Counted from the first letter of the stretch, positions 35,610 through 61,433 are shown. The stretch is 64,000 nt of DNA from a virus (IMGVR_UViG_3300042691_030495), one strand, 5' to 3'. Notes: generated from the sequence alone by a model not told the origin. Numbers and translations are program-made.

Positions 35610-35957
35610 ATGAAACAAAAATCTGCACTTAGGCTCTCGGAAGAGACTTTATCATATGAGAATGCTTGGAGATACGGAAAGTATTTTTATATAGCTACCT
35701 TGACTGACGGAAGGGATGTCGGGTTTTCTGCTGACAAAGTTCTAGTTACCGACACAGGGGACCTGTTAGCTATGTCCACATCCTTTGCAAGAGATAGAGG
35801 AGACGGCACTGGCAAATTTGATCGCGAAGAAACAGAGGCTAGAACTACTGTTTGCCTAGCAAAAGGTCAGTGGGTCTCTTTCTATGCAGCTAGTGCCTTA
35901 ACCGGAGATCCAGTCGGCCTTGATTGGGTTGAGGGGTATGTAGCTAAAAAGTCTTAG
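35610..35957 (+). CDS. Hypothetical protein
   Basis: AGGAG SD; AKGQWVSFYAAS..TGDP. Confidence 0.65.
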   Translation: MKQKSALRLSEETLSYENAWRYGKYFYIATLTDGRDVGFSADKVLVTDTGDLLAMSTSFARDRGDGTGKFDREETEARTTVCLAKGQWVSFYAASALTGDPVGLDWVEGYVAKKS

Positions 35958-51214: not shown

Positions 51215-52273
51215 ATGGAAGAATCCACTAGAAAATTACGTATTGATTTAGAGAATACATACGAGCCAGAAGAGTGCTACATAACTACGCACCAAATTTT
51301 TGAAGAGTTTAGTCTCGCTCCGTCTTTAAAAGATCTTTCATTATCTCTACATAACCCTGATCCCGTAAATATGGGCAGCACTGAATTAGATTTTGTAGAT
51401 ACAAATGAAATGATTTCAGATGAGATTAAAGTTTTAATTTATGTCCAAGACACTATCTATCACTTTTTTATAGACTCTCTAACTATGATCCTTAAGATAC
51501 ATAAGGAGCATTCAAATATTAAGTTTGTTTTATACCTACAAAGAGCTAGAGGCACTAAGGGTATAGATAATTTCTACGAGCTACTATTTTTAATTCTAGA
51601 CGGGCAAGGTGTAAACTATACAACCGTATCCACCGTACCGGGGAAAGACTATGCACCAGTCTATAAATTTAATAACTATGTGCGAATAGACAGACAAGTC
51701 AATATCCACCACTTGATGTCTTTCTTAGACGTGGAGTATATGGCAGACATTGCTATTAAATACTCTAGAAAGTATATGAATGCTACCGAGTCGGTTGAAC
51801 CGTTTAGGAAGCTATACATATCTAGAGGCAACGCTCCATCTGATTTAGGACCTATAGAAGAGGACTATCCAGACTACAGGGACGACCTGAGAATGAACGA
51901 CGCCCTAAAGTTAGAGGAATTCTTTGTCAGTCAAGGGTACGAAGCTTTCAGCCCTGAGAAGAAGTTTGGCTCTATTATGGAGCAGATTGTGTATATGAGT
52001 GAGGTAAAGACCCTAGCTTCCATTACAAGCTCTGGCCTAGCTAACATGATATTTATGAGGCCTAACCAGACAATCATTGAGGTTCAGGCTGAGCTGGTCC
52101 AGGTTATGAGGTTTGAGAAGGATAGCTATGTCTACCCTAAACAGCAGATACATAACTACTATTCGACCTTATCCTTTATGAGGCAGCATACCCATATAAG
52201 TATCCCTAGCCGTAGGGATCCGGATAAGGTAATTAAGACCCTAACTAGCGGTCAACTTTCCTATTTAATTTAG
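51215..52273 (+). CDS. GT61 (DUF563) glycosyltransferase
   Basis: YHFFIDSL, RKLYISRG, LEEFF...GYE...PE, EQI.YM, SSGLANMIFM.P...IIEV. Confidence 0.82.
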   Translation: MEESTRKLRIDLENTYEPEECYITTHQIFEEFSLAPSLKDLSLSLHNPDPVNMGSTELDFVDTNEMISDEIKVLIYVQDTIYHFFIDSLTMILKIHKEHSNIKFVLYLQRARGTKGIDNFYELLFLILDGQGVNYTTVSTVPGKDYAPVYKFNNYVRIDRQVNIHHLMSFLDVEYMADIAIKYSRKYMNATESVEPFRKLYISRGNAPSDLGPIEEDYPDYRDDLRMNDALKLEEFFVSQGYEAFSPEKKFGSIMEQIVYMSEVKTLASITSSGLANMIFMRPNQTIIEVQAELVQVMRFEKDSYVYPKQQIHNYYSTLSFMRQHTHISIPSRRDPDKVIKTLTSGQLSYLI

Positions 52274-54919: not shown

Positions 54920-55149
54920 ACTACCGCGGAGGACTCAAGCTGAGGTCGACGATCTGATTGCCCTCAAAGAGATGATCTCCAGGGTAACTGAGCTTGAGTA
55001 CAGGTCTAGGTTGCTTGCCGCTGAGAAGCGTAAGGTTGCCAAAACTAAGAGCGACACGCCCAAGCCAACAAAGCCAAAAACTACCAGAAAAAAGAAGGCT
55101 GAATAGCCTCTCTACACAGCTTAAAAAAGATACTGTAGTATGTACTTAA

Positions 55150-55373
55150 GAACACATTTGTACCACAGATGGGTTCAACAAGCTTCGGCGAAGGCGGTCA
55201 AGCTGAAACCGAAGTCGGAGAGTATTCTCCGATGCCTGGCATAGTTGCTAGGTGTAAATGAATACAGGTCTGCAGGAATCTAACGTGTCTCAACTCACGC
55301 TGGGAGAGAGTTCCTAAACTGACCAGAAGTGACCGTTTCGTCTGCTAAGGTAGGCGAGACGGTTTACTTTTTA
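55150..55373 (+). ncRNA. Candidate structured ncRNA (five consecutive stems plus terminator)
   Basis: Back-to-back hairpins with several G-U pairs, ending in a long stem plus T tract; no ORF. Confidence 0.5.
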
Positions 55374-55387
55374 TCTGGGAGTTTTAG

Positions 55388-55633
55388 TTGGCAGAAGACA
55401 TAGTGAAAATAGTTCCACTCGCTGAGGAGATGGGCATAAGTTACAAGACAATATATGTCTGGATCAACGACTGCCGCCTTGAGATGAAGAAGCCTGGGTT
55501 CGTCAGCAGGTCCGAAGCTTGGGAAGTCTTCGACTATATGAGATCGAAACGGTCAGAGATTTCTTACTTCACATCGACTTATGGTATCAACCGAGATGCC
55601 TATGGACGATTCATTTCTGAGCCTAATGAATAA
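55388..55633 (+). CDS. HTH DNA-binding protein
   Basis: LAEEMGISYKTIYVWI. Confidence 0.55.
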   Translation: MAEDIVKIVPLAEEMGISYKTIYVWINDCRLEMKKPGFVSRSEAWEVFDYMRSKRSEISYFTSTYGINRDAYGRFISEPNE

Positions 55634-55683
55634 ACAAAAGTCATAAACAAATCAATAAACAACATTAATGTTAAACTAAATTT

Positions 55684-56352
55684 ATGTGCGAGATATGTAC
55701 AACTGAGATGGCGGAGAGCTATGTAGCTCTTCCCAAGTTTAAGATTACCCCTGAGCAAAAGTTGTTGCTAAAGGGCAAACCTCATACTGGCTTAAATTCA
55801 AAACTAACCCCAGAGCAACTAGAAGATCGTCGACTCTATAAGCGAAGCTACGACAAGCTCTATCGAGAGTGGCGCAGGGCTAACGGCGACAATTATCAAA
55901 AAGAATATCAAAAGATATACAAGAGAAACCACGCTTCAGAGATTCACGAATACATAACTGGGTACCGAAAAAAGAACCCTGAATATGCCTTAAAAGCCAG
56001 TAGAAGAAAGCGAGCTAGAAAAGCTCTAGCTCCATCGCATCACTACACTTCAAAAGACATCCTAAGTATTCATGGGACAGCATGCTATCTATGTGGCAGA
56101 GAAATTGATTTATCAGCCCCACGCTCATCAGGAATTCCTGGCTGGCAGGAGGGCCTACATTTAGATCACGTAATCCCGCTGGCAGCAGGTGGCTCCGACA
56201 CTGTTGAGAATGTTAAACCGACTCATGCACTCTGTAATATGAGAAAGAATTCTGCCATTCCGATTGACATTGGAGATACGGAAATAACGGTTAAGGTACT
56301 ATTTGATCAGATATACGGTCAACCTAAAAAGGGTAGGCCATCAATTGAATAG
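55684..56352 (+). CDS. HNH endonuclease
   Basis: RRKRARK...CYLCG...HLDHVIPLAAGGSDTVENV...HALCNMRK. Confidence 0.88.
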   Translation: MCEICTTEMAESYVALPKFKITPEQKLLLKGKPHTGLNSKLTPEQLEDRRLYKRSYDKLYREWRRANGDNYQKEYQKIYKRNHASEIHEYITGYRKKNPEYALKASRRKRARKALAPSHHYTSKDILSIHGTACYLCGREIDLSAPRSSGIPGWQEGLHLDHVIPLAAGGSDTVENVKPTHALCNMRKNSAIPIDIGDTEITVKVLFDQIYGQPKKGRPSIE

Positions 56353-56532
56353 TCATCCGTTGTTTATGCGGGGGAAAAAGGTAGCTCACACTCTCTCCAC
56401 ACGCAAAAATTCGTCCGGAACTAATCACCAAGTTTTAACGAATGTACAATTGTTAGTTAGGGCGGCCAGGATTTCCGTCCTCTCCCCAGTAGATCCTGGT
56501 CGTCCGCTACTCAAACAGTTGGAGCGTTTAAC

Positions 56533-57582
56533 ATGAGCACTCAGGACCTATCCCCTGAATATCAGATAGATGAACCAATCGACCTTAGGGCCGATCTGGC
56601 CTCTCTTGGAATCGAAGAAGTCGATAAAGGCGTCTGTGAAGACAACTATGAAAACCGTGGTATATTACGGCGCGCTAAACTCAACTGGGATCCAGTCTTC
56701 TCAACGAACGGCGTGCCTACAGGACTAATAAGGGCCCGATCAAAAGAGACCACCAAGGAACGCCGCCTCCTATCCCTAGCGGAGAAGCGTCCACTACTTG
56801 TCAACCAATCGGATAACAACTCAGATTTCTTAACCGGCCTGGACCTCTTAGCGGAATCCGCCTCGGATTATTTAGTACCGCCTTGGGTTGTGCATTCTAC
56901 CAGGTTATACTTGAAAGAGCAAGAGGACGGTGGACCAAAATCCGCTAAACGCCAGCCGCTCTGCCAGCCCCACCGTTGCCGCCAGATCAAAGATGACGGT
57001 ATCCGCTGTATGCTCTGGGCATCGGGACGTCCAAAGGATGACGGTCTCTGCCGGATACATTTGCGCAGTGTTAAAAAGTTAACCTCGGATGACATTGAAC
57101 GGGCGCGCACTAAGTTGATGCAAGCCGCCCCGTATGCCGTCGACAAACTTGAGGAGCTTATGGAGTTCGCTGAGAGCGAACCGGTAATGCTCAAAGCCGC
57201 AACCGAGATCCTTGACCGAGCCGGCGTGCGCGGAGGTATAGAGATTGACTCGAACGTTAATATCGACGTCCGGCCTGCAGCGGAAGTAATCAACGAACGT
57301 CTCAACCGGCTTGCCGCAGGAGCCATTCATGCAGCGGCCCGCTTATCTCAGGAAGGTATGGACGTCGTTGACGCTGAGGTTGTAGTTGAGGGTGAAGATA
57401 CCGGATCCAAAACTTTTAACGAATCATTGGACGGCCCGGTAGACGTAACGACCGGATCTGAAGATAACGGATCTATAACGTTTAACGAATCATTAAAAGA
57501 TGACCTGGATCCAACGGAATCCACAGTCCACGGTCCACAGTCCACAGAAGAACGGCCTGCTCTACCTAAGGAAGAGAAATAA
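56533..57582 (+). CDS. Putative terminase small subunit-like protein
   Basis: C...DG.RC...C.IH module followed by AAPYAVDKLEEL...ESEPV.LKAATEILDRAG, a helical pattern seen in TerS-like proteins. Inference only. Confidence 0.45.
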   Translation: MSTQDLSPEYQIDEPIDLRADLASLGIEEVDKGVCEDNYENRGILRRAKLNWDPVFSTNGVPTGLIRARSKETTKERRLLSLAEKRPLLVNQSDNNSDFLTGLDLLAESASDYLVPPWVVHSTRLYLKEQEDGGPKSAKRQPLCQPHRCRQIKDDGIRCMLWASGRPKDDGLCRIHLRSVKKLTSDDIERARTKLMQAAPYAVDKLEELMEFAESEPVMLKAATEILDRAGVRGGIEIDSNVNIDVRPAAEVINERLNRLAAGAIHAAARLSQEGMDVVDAEVVVEGEDTGSKTFNESLDGPVDVTTGSEDNGSITFNESLKDDLDPTESTVHGPQSTEERPALPKEEK

Positions 57583-57920
57583 TGAATAACCTAAACGGTA
57601 ACCCGGATCCAACCTTTGCACGGATCATTGAAGCGGCCCGCACCCATTACGAGAACCTCAAAGCGGACATCCCAAACGCCTCTAACCGGATAGAGTACAT
57701 ACGTCTGACGACCTTAGCTCAGGAAGCATATACTCTTTTAACGAATCTTGAATTGTTCGAGCTCGGTCTCGTCTACGCACGGGTAGCTAATCTAGACGCC
57801 CAGTCAATGGAGCGTTACATGGAAATAATCGCGTCTCGCAAATCTGACGGATCCGAGATCCCGTTGGATCTACCAGAGTTTAAAAGTCCGTTTACACCAC
57901 CACCGTCCACAATGCAGTAG
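57582..57920 (+). CDS. Hypothetical protein
   Basis: TAATG coupling to the upstream gene. Confidence 0.6.
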   Translation: MNNLNGNPDPTFARIIEAARTHYENLKADIPNASNRIEYIRLTTLAQEAYTLLTNLELFELGLVYARVANLDAQSMERYMEIIASRKSDGSEIPLDLPEFKSPFTPPPSTMQ

Positions 57921-57929
57921 ACTTCTCCC

Positions 57930-58802
57930 ATGAGGTTTAAAAAGACGCAAGGACCTGGACCACACGTAGAGCTGTTCATATCCACAGCACAGAAGTACTT
58001 GGGGTATACTTCAGAGATCCTCGGCCGTAATATGTTTGGTCAAAAGGTTGGTTACGACGCCGGCCCATGGAGTGGCGCGTTCATTGATGTTGTTGCCCGG
58101 GAGTCCCTGGTGAACATTCCATCATTCGTTTATTCAGCTGCCGGTCTGGCGGAATGCATTCGTAGTGGCGCGATCTCGCGAGCGCCGCGGCCTGGTGACA
58201 TAGCGATCTTTAACTTTTCATCAATGAGCGGACATGAGCCGGATCCCTTCGGCCCGCCCCATTGCGGGATCGTTACTGACGTCCAAGAATTCACGAAGAG
58301 CGGCCGGTTTGTAACGGTTGAGGGAAACACTGAAGGTGGATCCAAACATTTAACGAAGGACGGCGTGCACCAAAAGATCCGCCACGTAACGGACGTTGTA
58401 ATCTTCTGCAGGCCCGCCTTCACTAACGGGAAGATCCGATCCAGGAAGACTTTTTACGAACGGTTCATGGATCTGTTCGATGCGGCCCGCACTCGTATAA
58501 CGGTTGCTGAACTGGAGGAGATCCGGATAGCGGCGAGCGCGCCTTCAGTATTAAAGTTAAACGGAGAGATCCGCCACGGGGATCGGAACAAACGGATCGA
58601 GACGATCCAGCTAGCGCTCGCAACGGTAACGGACCTCAGGGGCTGTGAACCAGGGAAGTGGGATGCCATCACGGCTGCGGCCTGCTCGCGCTTTCAACGA
58701 AACATTGGACGAACCGGATCTGATGTTACGGGTCTTCCGGATCCGGGTACTTTAAAACGTTTGTCAAAAGTTAGCCGCGTTTTCAAACTTGAATCCGAGT
58801 AG
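57930..58802 (+). CDS. CHAP-like domain + peptidoglycan-binding domain protein
   Basis: PRPGDIAIF, HCGIV, TVEGNT. The usual catalytic Cys (PWC) is Ser (PWSGAF). C-terminal PG-binding-like helices. Confidence 0.75.
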   Translation: MRFKKTQGPGPHVELFISTAQKYLGYTSEILGRNMFGQKVGYDAGPWSGAFIDVVARESLVNIPSFVYSAAGLAECIRSGAISRAPRPGDIAIFNFSSMSGHEPDPFGPPHCGIVTDVQEFTKSGRFVTVEGNTEGGSKHLTKDGVHQKIRHVTDVVIFCRPAFTNGKIRSRKTFYERFMDLFDAARTRITVAELEEIRIAASAPSVLKLNGEIRHGDRNKRIETIQLALATVTDLRGCEPGKWDAITAAACSRFQRNIGRTGSDVTGLPDPGTLKRLSKVSRVFKLESE

Positions 58803-58847
58803 TTCTTGTGCTAGACTTCGATGGTCTATAGAAAGGACGTTAAAAAC

Positions 58848-59189
58848 ATGAACAAAGCAGTAATTGAGTCCTACCTCAGGAACCTCCTTGGCCAGGTTGC
58901 TGGAGCAGTCATGATTGTTACCCAGACATCAGGAATTCTGAATCCAATCGACTTCGGTACCAGTGAGTGGCTCCTCGTGGCCAACGCCTTGTGGGCGTCC
59001 CTCATCCCAGTAATCCTACGTTGGGTCAACAAGGCCGACCCAGCATTCGGCGCGGTTGCAGAAGTTGCAGCCAAGGAAATCACAAAGAAGATCTCTTCAG
59101 CGGCAAGCTCAGCAAAGAAGAAACCTGCTGCTAAGAAGCCAGCAGCAAAGAAGCCAGCAGCAAAGAAGCCGGCAGCAAAAAAGAGATAA
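58848..59189 (+). CDS. Holin-like membrane protein with histone-H1-like (KKPAA)n tail
   Basis: IESYLR...ALWASLIPVILRWVNKADPAFG; KKPAA four times. Confidence 0.65.
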   Translation: MNKAVIESYLRNLLGQVAGAVMIVTQTSGILNPIDFGTSEWLLVANALWASLIPVILRWVNKADPAFGAVAEVAAKEITKKISSAASSAKKKPAAKKPAAKKPAAKKPAAKKR

Positions 59190-59204
59190 CTTTTAACGAA
59201 TCAT

Positions 59205-59250
59205 AAGAAGCCGGCCCGGTTCAATGTAACCTCGGCCGGTTTTCTTTTTT
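59205..59250 (+). terminator. Intrinsic terminator
   Basis: GCCGGCC...GGCCGGT followed by TTTCTTTTTT. Confidence 0.7.
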
Positions 59251-59261
59251 CTAAAATAGAC

Positions 59262-59290
59262 TTGACAAATAAAAAACGGCATGCTAGTGT
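59262..59290 (+). promoter_or_regulatory. SigA-type promoter
   Basis: TTGACA-17 bp-TAGTGT with TG extension. Confidence 0.7.
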
Positions 59291-59319
59291 TTCAAAACAG
59301 CTAACAGAAAGGACTGAAC

Positions 59320-59598
59320 ATGCAGTCAAAATACATCAAGATGTTATCGGATGAGCAGAGAATTTGCAGGGCCTGCGGATATGAACGTTCACCAAATGCC
59401 GGCCCGTCGGATGACTTGCAGTATTTTAAACAAGGACCGTACCACCCGTCATGTCATGAAGAGGTTGAGCAGCTGATCAAAACTTTTAACGAAAGCGGCG
59501 TGCCCCGTGAAAAAGCGATCGAGATATTTAAGCGCCTCGGTATTAATTTAGAACTGCTCAGTGTCAACGGAGTGTCTGCTAAGAACTTGACAAAATAG
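59320..59598 (+). CDS. Hypothetical zinc-binding protein
   Basis: CRAC...HPSC; GAAAGGA SD. Confidence 0.6.
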   Translation: MQSKYIKMLSDEQRICRACGYERSPNAGPSDDLQYFKQGPYHPSCHEEVEQLIKTFNESGVPREKAIEIFKRLGINLELLSVNGVSAKNLTK

Positions 59599-59615
59599 TA
59601 ACGGCTTGCTATAGT
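59587..59615 (+). promoter_or_regulatory. SigA-type promoter
   Basis: TTGACA-17 bp-TATAGT with TG extension. Confidence 0.75.
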
Positions 59616-59622
59616 CAATGCT

Positions 59623-59724
59623 ATGGATGAAAAGTGCGAGCTCTGCGGAGCAACGGGTAAGGGAACATCGGCGTGGGGCGGTTGGTGCCACGACTGCGAC
59701 AATCAAATGTCGGAAGCGGTTTGA
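59623..59724 (+). CDS. 33-aa leaderless zinc-ribbon peptide
   Basis: MDEKCELCGATGKGTSAWGGWCHDCDNQMSEAV; ATG 7 nt after the -10 box. Confidence 0.55.
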   Translation: MDEKCELCGATGKGTSAWGGWCHDCDNQMSEAV

Positions 59725-60080
59725 GTAACGGCGTGCACTGGATTTGTTCGCGCGCCAACAGTTACGGTATCGGCGTGCGCCGTTTGCCACGGAGTACCTG
59801 CACCTGCGGTGAGTACTGGATGTTCTACTGCGAGGACTGCGGAGAGTGCACACATTGCATCGGTGAGTACTACATGGTCGAGGACGAGGTTTGGTATTCC
59901 GCGATCAGCGCACGGAGCAAACCCGACATGCTTTGCGTTGGGTGCCTGGAAACTCGCATCGGTCGACTTTTAACGAAAGATGATTTTAGTGACGCCCCGT
60001 TGAATTCGCTGCCATTCTGGACTAGGTCCGAGAGATTGAAATCTAGATTGAATTCGACCGGGCCTACTTTTCACGAATGA
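59721..60080 (+). CDS. Cys-rich phage protein
   Basis: CEDCG...EYYMV.DEVW...LCVGCLE.RIGR.L...DF; start uncertain. Confidence 0.65.
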   Translation: MSNGVHWICSRANSYGIGVRRLPRSTCTCGEYWMFYCEDCGECTHCIGEYYMVEDEVWYSAISARSKPDMLCVGCLETRIGRLLTKDDFSDAPLNSLPFWTRSERLKSRLNSTGPTFHE

Positions 60081-60194
60081 TCGATTGTGCTCCGCGAGGA
60101 GGGGTTCCAAAACTTTTTAAAAAAATCTTCCCTTTTTCCCTTTTGTTTTTGAAAACTATGGTATAGTTCAAATACCAAATAGAGAGGGGAAGTC

Positions 60195-60350
60195 ATGGAC
60201 TTCTATGGAAACCCAGAAATCAAAAAGGCCTATCAGGCTGGCTTCAATGATGGACTCCAATGTGGCGTAGATAACGCACGAGAGTTCGAATACATAAATG
60301 AAGAGCAGGCAGAAGAACTTCTGACTGAACTAGTGAAAGAGGAAAACTAA
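60195..60350 (+). CDS. Hypothetical 51-aa protein
   Basis: GAGGGG SD; TAATG overlap with the next gene. Confidence 0.55.
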   Translation: MDFYGNPEIKKAYQAGFNDGLQCGVDNAREFEYINEEQAEELLTELVKEEN

Positions 60351-60811
60351 TGGGGCTAGACATGTATCTTGAGGCGAGGAAGTTTGTCTCGTCATACTCT
60401 GACGCCGAGACTTACCAGAACCTGAAAAAGCAAATGGCGCTCGCGGACGGAGACCTGCCGCACAGCAACTTCGGCACGCTCAGTCTTGAGGTTATGTATT
60501 GGCGGAAAGTAAACGCCGTCCATGATTGGTTTGTTCGTGAGGTTCAGAACGGCGAGGATGACTGTAAGACGTATCACGTCAGCAAGGAAAAGCTTGCCGA
60601 ACTCGTGGACATCTGCAAGCGGATTGTCGATAAACAAGACCCGACGGTTGCTGCGGATTTACTCCCATCGGCGAGCGGGTTCTTCTTTGGGTCAACGGAC
60701 TATGATGAGTATTACTACGAAGGCCTGCTTTGGACTATCGAGGGGATTGAACGGATACTGAATAATCCGGCCTATGACGGCATGGACTTCTACTACCAAG
60801 CCAGTTGGTGA
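60350..60811 (+). CDS. Conserved phage protein
   Basis: MGLDMYL...YWRK.NA.HDWFV...LLP..SGFFFGS..YDEYY...YQASW. Confidence 0.75.
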   Translation: MGLDMYLEARKFVSSYSDAETYQNLKKQMALADGDLPHSNFGTLSLEVMYWRKVNAVHDWFVREVQNGEDDCKTYHVSKEKLAELVDICKRIVDKQDPTVAADLLPSASGFFFGSTDYDEYYYEGLLWTIEGIERILNNPAYDGMDFYYQASW

Positions 60812-60994
60812 AACCTGACGGTTGGCTTGCTGGTTCGTGAAAAGTTCACCAGCAGCAGCTGACGGCATGGATCGTAAGTCCTGGTGCAGCGGCTTGCTGT
60901 TTCGTGAAAAGTTCAGCACAGTTGACGGGGATCCAAACTTTTAACCAACGGTGAAGCTATATGTATACCCAAATCACCATGCGGCGAGCGCGGT

Positions 60995-61318
60995 ATGCTA
61001 TGTTTCATGCGTTCATTAGAGTTACACGTAATCGAGACGGCAAGCGACGTTGACGACGCCGTTACCGCTGGTGTACTCCTACCCGAGAGCCTGGTAGAGA
61101 CAGAGTGCTCTGACTGCTCTGAAGGGGTTGGTTACAGCGGACTCGACGAATTCGCGCCGTTCTCAGTGGTGATCGACGAGAATGATAGAGATTGGATTCT
61201 CTGCAGCGAATGCGCATCTCCAGTGGTTGACGGGGGATGGAGACAAGCCACACATATGCCTGAGACGTACTCTAAAGGGAATATCTATGAGCCTGATGAG
61301 GACCTAGACTTCTACTGA
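60995..61318 (+). CDS. Zinc-binding hypothetical protein
   Basis: CSDC...CSEC; probable leaderless start at 61007. Confidence 0.55.
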   Translation: MLCFMRSLELHVIETASDVDDAVTAGVLLPESLVETECSDCSEGVGYSGLDEFAPFSVVIDENDRDWILCSECASPVVDGGWRQATHMPETYSKGNIYEPDEDLDFY

Positions 61319-61403
61319 TCCATTTTGACTTCAGCCCAGGCTGAGCCAAACTTTCCACGATCGTGGGGCAAAAAAGAATTTGAAAAACTTTTAACGAATA
61401 CGC

Positions 61404-61433
61404 TTGCGTTTTGTCAGCCAATCGTGCTATCGT
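61404..61433 (+). promoter_or_regulatory. Probable early promoter
   Basis: TTGCGT-18 bp-TATCGT with TG extension; AACTTTTAACGAA just upstream. Confidence 0.5.

Follow-up and report, generated by a model that had tools for sequence, protein, structure and literature searches.

A 64,000-nucleotide (nt) stretch of DNA from a large uncultured freshwater phage related to Actinomycetia phage DSL-LC01 (IMGVR_UViG_3300042691_030495; the whole stretch is called the window here, and coordinates without a prefix are counted from its first letter) carries about 15 copies of an asymmetric 13-bp word, confined to 5 kb around the lysis genes and a gene for a 349-amino-acid (aa) protein that is loosely labelled as small-terminase-like (‘TerS-like’). 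We suggest, at a probability of roughly 0.45, that these 13-mers are operator- or stoperator-like sites of a phage-encoded monomeric winged-helix regulator, the candidate being an 81-aa protein encoded at 55388. The positions and orientation of the sites, their placement relative to promoters, and their co-occurrence and co-variation with that protein are observed directly.

The word, AACTTTTAACGAA, is a non-palindromic, asymmetric 13-mer with exact copies at 57411, 59188, 59481 and 61386, all four on the + strand, where 100 shuffles gave none; a search of the full 64 kb found no exact copy outside the array. Allowing up to two mismatches raises the count to 19 in the 64 kb (shuffles, 2.9 ± 1.6), of which 15 fall inside 56430–61398 (4 exact and 11 near, over 4969 bp at a mean spacing of ~350 bp), and 11 array copies have at most one mismatch, against a chance expectation of ~0.08 per 64 kb. 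Twelve of the 15 lie on the + strand, as does the surrounding gene block, and three on the − strand. These figures bear out a sequence-only reading of the window, which had reported about 15 copies and no exact copy elsewhere: all of the near copies that it listed are present, the one at 61349 being the weakest with three mismatches, and its reverse copies at 60834 and 60901 are real, with one mismatch each. A further reverse near-copy at 58760(−), with two mismatches and conserved in the relative L002, had escaped that list.

The same-strain contig L070, which has 4 differences from the window in 11.9 kb and covers window positions 52128–73180, adds beyond 61398 only one two-mismatch match (at 65320). 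Copies with at most one mismatch are absent beyond 61398 from L070 and also from L073 and L074, two near-identical strains whose contigs reach the large terminase gene. Of at least 84 kb covered, the array thus takes up 5 kb and is not spread uniformly. Its last copy ends at 61398, next to a palindrome-poor block that begins at ~61400 with a gene for an AAA ATPase and a CobT-like gene, palindromic 4-mers dropping from 31–38 per kb to 11–18 per kb at 62.1–65.1 kb. The proposal that the array ends at this compositional boundary thus holds for the present strain but not as a general rule, because the relative G002 carries the word inside its early block. Palindromic 4-mers are as high as 78–84 per kb in window 57000–59100.

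Among 64 related IMG/VR loci (1.09 Mb), retrieved through the 349-aa protein, the family pattern AACTT[CT]N[ACT]ACGAA gives 117 matches against 0.8 expected, and the family is enriched ~150-fold in 20 related phage loci, with almost no information in the positions that flank the 13-mer. Copies lie both between genes and inside open reading frames, as first noticed: 43% of family copies are intergenic where 13% of the sequence is non-coding, and among the 57% inside genes, 51 co-oriented copies use all three frames (11, 19 and 21). That all three frames are used and that 43% of copies are intergenic argues for a word that acts at the DNA level. In the tail of the TerS-like gene, which reads GSKTFNESL and GSITFNESL, the DNA word thus sets the repeated residues, as had been proposed; a TTT variant in the tail gives TFNE and the TCT variant of L017 gives TSNE. 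A protein repeat or chance was rejected as an explanation (three frames, many intergenic copies, shuffle statistics), and so was a recombination or module junction, as the homology breakpoints between the window and eight relatives are not at copies. Two near-copies that are kept by protein sequence, one in the TerS-like gene (ERAReKL, ~+586) and the other in the phrog_7971 gene, were excluded from the site count.

In the complete genome of relative G003 (154 kb), 8 of 11 matches at up to one mismatch lie in 49–60.5 kb, and in G002 (136 kb) all 19 exact matches to ACTTYNAACGAA lie in 35.7–61.9 kb, the forward copies mostly intragenic, around and after the TerS-like gene, and several reversed copies in spacers between early genes. 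The third element of the first description, that the motif is often preceded by GGATCCA, survives in part: the exact prefix stands at 3 of the 15 window sites, but a GATC within 14 nt upstream (6 of 15 window sites) is enriched family-wide, at 18 of 113 copies against 5–6 of 113 at control offsets. GATC tends to sit 8–22 nt 5′ of motif copies, and GATC, GGATC and GGATCC are enriched two- to threefold locally (window 57000–59100).

Orientation follows local transcription at 73 of 98 strict family sites, and in long minus-strand genes of the relatives all six copies are on the minus strand. The distance from intergenic copies to the next start codon varies from 6 to >500 nt, and the start-associated sequences of Cluster K phages, 13-bp words that stand a fixed short way 5′ of start codons, were rejected as a parallel since no such distance is fixed here and most copies are intragenic. 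Co-orientation with transcription in about 78% of copies would also be expected if the word worked in the transcripts, for instance as a processing site, as the target of a protein or within a hairpin, and the sequence AAGTT, which could pair with the 5′ half of the word, is found within 40 nt downstream in 27 of 113 family copies against 9 in an upstream control, with a peak 10–12 nt past the word (13 copies). However, most copies are without a partner sequence, those that could pair are for the most part complete inverted pairs of the word as DNA, a reversed copy 5′ of a transcription start would yield a different RNA, and no Rfam covariance model matches in the region; we consider an RNA-level role very improbable. 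As an obligatory hairpin the word was rejected, a partner arm being present in ~15% of copies, mostly such inverted pairs.

Individual sites (Table 1) are conserved beyond their surroundings in some cases and turn over in others. Between the window and L002, which are 81% identical overall, five of eight sites are kept at 12–13 of 13 positions: site 1 is identical at 12 of 13, site 7 at 13 of 13, and site 2 at 13 of 13 while its 40-nt flank agrees at 23 of 40. Site 3 is not conserved there, and site 5 is missing at the aligned position. Tail copies equivalent to site 2 are found in L014 and L017, and in the endolysin linker, at an apparently equivalent position judged by eye without alignment, the word is read as TF(N/Y)E in L004, L014, L019 and L064 and in another frame, as LLTK or LLTN, in L005, L006 and L008. 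The preservation of site 4 may be due to a conserved LLT(N/E)L peptide. In sister strains L070–L072 (runs X1/X17), site 3 is weakened by two substitutions, which also give rise to a reversed copy at 57489. The four differences that separate the window from L070, this motif flip included, all lie in the variable acidic tail of the TerS-like gene (57489–57539), and in a more distant population (run X15) that tail is altered by many substitutions and small deletions. In a variant strain, the 36 nt immediately 5′ of the weak copy at 61349 are replaced.

The gene for the 81-aa protein is present in all motif-enriched loci and only in those, and a tblastn profile of the local genes places it directly upstream of the TerS-like gene in 20 of 20 of them. 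Under a broadened family pattern, loci with this gene have 3–17 matches each against 0.1–0.2 expected, whereas the 44 loci without it have 9 matches in 649 kb against 5.6 expected; in L012, a divergent double HTH_17-like gene is found together with a divergent word. In sequence and predicted fold the protein fits the HTH_17/Xis/MerR type of winged helix. In Pfam, the window protein reaches 22 bits with HTH_28 (below cut-off) and the L006 orthologue 32 bits with HTH_17 (cut-off 27); the profile matches Pukovnik Xis best (E 6e-4) and RacA second best (E 8e-3). The structural model (predicted local distance difference test score 84) has a strand-helix-helix arrangement, a two-strand wing and a long helix, and its fold matches include RacA (the best, probability 0.96–0.97), BldC, Xis, MtaN, P2 Cox, terminase DNA-binding domains and lambda Nu1.

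The main argument for this protein, and against the TerS-like one, as the source of the specificity comes from its co-variation with the word. The 5′ half of the word, AACTT, is constant across the family, and the 3′ half is ACGAA in most phages and ACTAA, ATTAG/ATTAA or AATAA in L009–L012, each variant being enriched by itself (3–8 copies against at most 0.05 expected). On the winged-helix tree, phages with an altered 3′ half form one clade (one change, support 87/82, matched by 1 of 500 shuffles), whereas on the TerS-like tree the 3′-half labels are scattered, with four changes needed and at least two forced by well-supported branches. Phages with a TTTT variant need two changes on the winged-helix tree, and this variant, too, fits that tree more closely than the TerS-like one. 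Terminal branches measure 0.2–1.8 for the winged-helix protein against 0.01–0.2 for the TerS-like protein, and the winged-helix gene has evidently been exchanged relative to its TerS-like neighbour. Because the variants track the winged-helix and not the TerS-like tree, the winged-helix protein probably sets the specificity. The proposed ‘oriented protein-binding array’ is thus a fitting description: the 13-mer is discrete, with uninformative flanks, frame-independent, strand-biased and conserved with lineage-specific variants, and it co-occurs and co-varies with the neighbouring DNA-binding gene at 55388, the candidate binder.

Several sites stand at promoter positions that recur among relatives. 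The spacer between the winged-helix and TerS-like genes is conserved in 18 phages and holds a −10-like TA(A/C)AAT and, beyond it, a long hairpin. In the window, as in L002, L004 and L019, 2 nt separate the end of the motif from this −10; degenerate copies are found in L014 and L064, and in other lineages copies lie in the leader just 5′ of the start codon, sometimes as a reversed and forward pair. At the far end of the array, the first early promoter of the window consists of TTGCGT (61404–61409), an 18-nt gap and an extended −10, TGcTATCGT, that ends at 61433. In L002, L004, L014, L019 and L064 the motif is followed, after a gap of 4–6 nt, by TTGACA and an extended −10, and a hairpin in the 5′ untranslated region and a GAAAGGGG ribosome site come after this promoter in all five. 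At least two reversed copies in G002 abut a −35-like hexamer, with TATCTT 17 nt further. We rejected the word as a self-contained promoter, as it is without a conserved element at a fixed downstream distance and its distance to start codons varies; the annotation of DSL-LC01 also lists no phage RNA polymerase gene. In L014, L019 and L064, directly 5′ of the motif at the first early promoter, lies a direct repeat of 11-bp period, GTTAYCA-N4-GTTAYCA, which resembles a response-regulator site.

Such host-regulator-like repeats at the neighbouring promoters (GTTAYCA direct repeats, GACACG) might be taken to mean that the 13-mers are themselves sites of an actinobacterial global regulator or nucleoid protein that the phage recruits. 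The 3′ half of the word, however, diverges between close phages and tracks a fast-evolving phage gene, and the word is not enriched in sister phages that lack the winged-helix gene, so that a host factor seems to us improbable.

We infer binding by the 55388 protein, and also the sign and mechanism of regulation, along the following lines. The 81-aa protein (55388–55633) would bind its asymmetric site as a monomer; the fold class includes BldC, Xis and Cox, small proteins reported to bind asymmetric or direct-repeat sites without a dimerization domain. The local regulon would have three parts: a site over the core of the promoter of the TerS-like/endolysin/holin operon, mostly co-directional sites within that operon, past its end and among the small genes that follow, and a site just 5′ of the −35 of the first early promoter. 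Binding at promoters would occlude or modulate RNA polymerase and binding at co-oriented internal sites would hinder elongation in stoperator fashion, the joint effect being a timing gate on the packaging and lysis genes and the adjoining early unit. A wider claim, which we advance as a speculation whose chances are clearly below even, is that a minimal Xis/MerR-type monomer and its fast-evolving 13-bp site provide stoperator-like, orientation-dependent control in large, apparently lytic actinophages, as an independent invention with a different fold, and that this control gates the packaging–lysis operon and the first early promoter while its specificity diversifies in the manner of immunity groups.

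The first description had left the choice between stoperator-like sites and terminase recognition; the former fits better, given the promoter placement and the minus-oriented copies in minus-strand genes, and the latter is weakened. Under terminase recognition of the pac or cosB kind, the winged-helix protein, the TerS-like protein or both would mark the start of packaging, and the array would end at the block that is packaged or injected first. In several characterized phages, pac or cos sites lie in or just 5′ of the small-terminase gene, and here one copy precedes the TerS-like gene and another falls within its 3′ end; the array also halts at the compositional boundary. The profile of the 349-aa protein matches small terminases 7joq (E 0.008) and 6w7t (E 0.3) over its LKAAxEILDRAG helix, the counterpart of the oligomerization helix in the small terminases of PaP3 and NV1. 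Weak hints of DUF5681 and TerS come from fold and atlas searches, and the winged-helix fold matches lambda Nu1 and other terminase DNA-binding domains. Yet a best E of 0.008 makes the protein weakly TerS-like at most, it has no Pfam or PHROGs match, and we do not regard the label as secure. Sites spread over 5 kb at ~350-bp spacing would not form one nucleoprotein complex, relatives have copies at early promoters and within the early block, orientation tracks local transcription in minus-strand genes, and the variants follow the winged-helix and not the TerS-like tree. Directly upstream of the large terminase gene, ~20 kb beyond 61400, lies a gene for a 185–188-aa protein with two helix-turn-helix (HTH) segments and no copies near it, an alternative candidate for the small terminase or a late regulator. 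A terminal repeat from 61400 was rejected because contig depth in the related population of run X15 is ~12.5 on both sides, and a physical end near the array because related contigs lack a common homologous start point. Overall, we judge packaging recognition unlikely. Breaks in the 6 kb 5′ of the TerS-like gene are common among related contigs, and small pieces of this gene were found in one metatranscriptome. In L073, a collagen-like gene of tail-fibre type is inserted between the double-HTH gene and the large terminase gene.

The strength of the RacA fold match, seconded by its rank as second-best profile match, raises the idea of an architectural or anchoring array, in which the protein coats the 5-kb domain in the manner of RacA or ParB so as to organize, tether or pause the DNA, for example as a stop or landmark for DNA entry beside the early block, and does not control specific promoters. 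In Bacillus subtilis, RacA has many binding sites scattered through the origin-proximal part of the chromosome, and the copies here are confined to one domain adjoining the palindrome-poor block, with a local excess of GATC (38 in 56–60 kb against ~14 per 4 kb elsewhere). Anchoring would not, however, require the strong orientation of the sites, several of which are placed precisely at promoter elements, and in G002 the domain is placed differently with respect to the early block; there is in our estimation little chance that the array serves this purpose.

The closest known kind of system for regulator sites such as we propose is the operators and stoperators of Cluster A mycobacteriophages, which are bound by an immunity repressor of the L5 gp71 type (PMC9283540). 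The two share an asymmetric 13-bp word in many copies, most simply read by a single protein molecule; a correlation of site orientation with transcription direction (the reversed copies at G002 early promoters being an exception here); a division of copies between promoters and the length of transcription units; specificity that differs among related phages; and actinobacterial hosts. They differ in that Cluster A stoperators span the whole genome, whereas the present copies keep to 5 kb (to 26 kb in one relative), and in that Cluster A sites occupy promoter regions and short intergenic spaces, whereas 57% of copies here are intragenic. The Cluster A binder is a 183-aa two-domain repressor and the present candidate an 81-aa Xis/MerR-type winged helix, although a gp71-like gene elsewhere in the genome was not searched for. 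Blocking of elongation by orientation belongs to the Cluster A stoperators and is proposed here by analogy. Unlike in Cluster A, neither the window nor the annotated relative DSL-LC01 showed an integrase or any sign of lysogeny. As genome-wide spread, intergenic placement and a gp71-type repressor are wanting, we rate the array as a variant of stoperators and not a member.

Other known elements resemble the array in part. Those of small terminases (the R sites of lambda cosB, bound by the winged helix of gpNu1, and SPP1 pacL/pacR) also consist of short repeated words in or beside a small-terminase-like gene, and gpNu1 is of the same fold class as the candidate binder, but they lie within a few hundred bp of the cut site where the present array takes up 5 kb; the present copies also recur at relatives’ early promoters and follow local transcription. 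BldC and phage Xis/Cox are, like the candidate, minimal winged-helix proteins without a dimerization domain; their sites are asymmetric or repeated head to tail, and they can serve to regulate transcription. Whereas they bind closely spaced tandem repeats and polymerize, most sites here stand alone at distances of hundreds of bp, and inverted pairs are only occasional.

A number of points weigh against sites of a winged-helix regulator. Two are differences from classical stoperators already given, namely that more than half of the copies are intragenic, and not in promoter regions and short intergenic spaces, and that the array in this strain is only 5 kb long. The winged-helix fold is equally typical of small-terminase DNA-binding domains. 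Co-occurrence of gene and word is confined to one clade and therefore amounts to one evolutionary event, and for the co-variation the variant labels were assigned by hand in a small sample with moderate tree supports (~85%). A consensus promoter scan stayed at background level and did not pick most of these promoters, so that the promoter calls, made by eye, rest on conservation across phages. Finally, promoter geometry varies by lineage, from co-oriented copies with a 5-nt gap to reversed copies abutting the −35.

The local gene order runs from a terminator through the winged-helix gene, an HNH endonuclease gene, the TerS-like gene and a 112-aa gene to the endolysin gene (57930), a holin-like gene, a terminator-like stem-loop with a T-run and several small genes. 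The HNH gene is an insertion peculiar to this strain and near-identical relatives; in L002 and L004, which lack it, the flanks join directly (window 55621 to 56359), and it looks like a free-standing homing endonuclease that is no part of the packaging genes. Upstream of the winged-helix gene (window 55120–55387) are a −10-like TAGTAT, ~200 nt of structured sequence and a strong intrinsic terminator whose end lies 23 nt from the winged-helix start codon; this leader has no Rfam match and looks like one of attenuator type. The operon leader at 56353–56532, also without an Rfam family match, is a candidate cis-regulatory RNA: in 16 phages, 13 of the 15 predicted pairs of its hairpin show compensatory changes, with G–U pairs on the + strand, the invariant loop of 17 nt includes CCUCUCCCC, and G-rich stretches upstream of the hairpin could pair with that loop. 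In several relatives, perfect head-to-head motif pairs, for example with a 2–3-nt spacer, lie ~4.8 kb upstream of the TerS-like gene; the centre of such a pair also fits the Gram-positive SOS-box pattern CGAAC-N4-GTTCG, and G002 has two pairs 136 bp apart, at 35757 and 35893.

Table 1. Motif copies and neighbouring features; prefixed coordinates refer to related contigs.
Feature	Coordinates	Strand	Description
Terminator	55331–55364		Upstream of winged-helix gene
Winged-helix gene, 81 aa	55388–55633	+	HTH_17/Xis/MerR class; candidate motif binder
HNH endonuclease gene	55684–56352		Strain-specific insertion
Site 1	56430–56442	+	AAGTTTTAACGAA, 1 mismatch; 2 nt upstream of −10-like TACAAT (56445–56450) of TerS-like/lysis operon
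Leader hairpin	56459–56506	+	Just 3′ of site 1; invariant loop GTCCTCTCCCCAGT; array context, not a member
TerS-like gene, 349 aa	56533–57582	+	Conserved N-terminal domain, Cys-rich segment, LKAAxEILDRAG helix, variable acidic tail
Site 2	57411–57423	+	Exact; 3′ tail of TerS-like gene, encodes TFNE
Site 3	57477–57489	+	1 mismatch; second copy in TerS-like tail
Site 4	57733–57745	+	2 mismatches; within 112-aa gene; weak
Site 5	58345–58357	+	1 mismatch; within endolysin gene, different frame (HLTK)
Site 6	58448–58460	+	2 mismatches; endolysin linker; 13/13 identical in L002
Reverse near-copy	58760–58772	−	2 mismatches; end of endolysin gene; 13/13 identical in L002
Site 7	59188–59200	+	Exact; overlaps holin-like stop codon; terminator-like stem-loop and T-run just downstream
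Site 8	59481–59493	+	Exact; within 92-aa gene
Site 9	59965–59977	+	1 mismatch; within 135-aa gene (phrog_6053); conserved in L002, L004, L014
Site 10	60065–60077	+	2 mismatches; at stop codon of 135-aa gene
Reverse site	60834–60846	−	AACTTTTCACGAA, 1 mismatch; intergenic
Second reverse site	60901–60913	−	1 mismatch; intergenic; within repeat of 67-bp period
Site 11	60936–60948	+	1 mismatch; intergenic; GGATCCA directly before
Weak copy	61349–61361	+	3 mismatches; intergenic
Site 12	61386–61398	+	Exact; 5 nt upstream of −35 TTGCGT (61404–61409) of first early promoter
Double-HTH gene	L074:18028–18594, L073:16697–17254		No motif copies nearby
GTTAYCA repeat	L014:15295–15321, L019:15371–15397, L064:15411–15437		Direct repeat 5′ of motif at first early promoter
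Head-to-head pairs	L013:5160–5187, L017:6330–6358, L015:5203–5242, L018:5140–5170		Upstream of TerS-like gene

Oriented arrays in which sites for a single protein affect RNA polymerase during elongation are known chiefly from one mycobacteriophage group, and their mechanism is debated. The case described here would offer a second, unrelated pair of protein and site, with ~20 natural specificity variants already sequenced, and the pair is accessible without the uncultured host, as it consists of an 81-aa protein and 13-bp duplexes. It also cautions that the ‘TerS-like’ label of the neighbouring gene is insecure, and it would suggest what a gene and a repeated word, both widespread among abundant freshwater phages, are likely to do.

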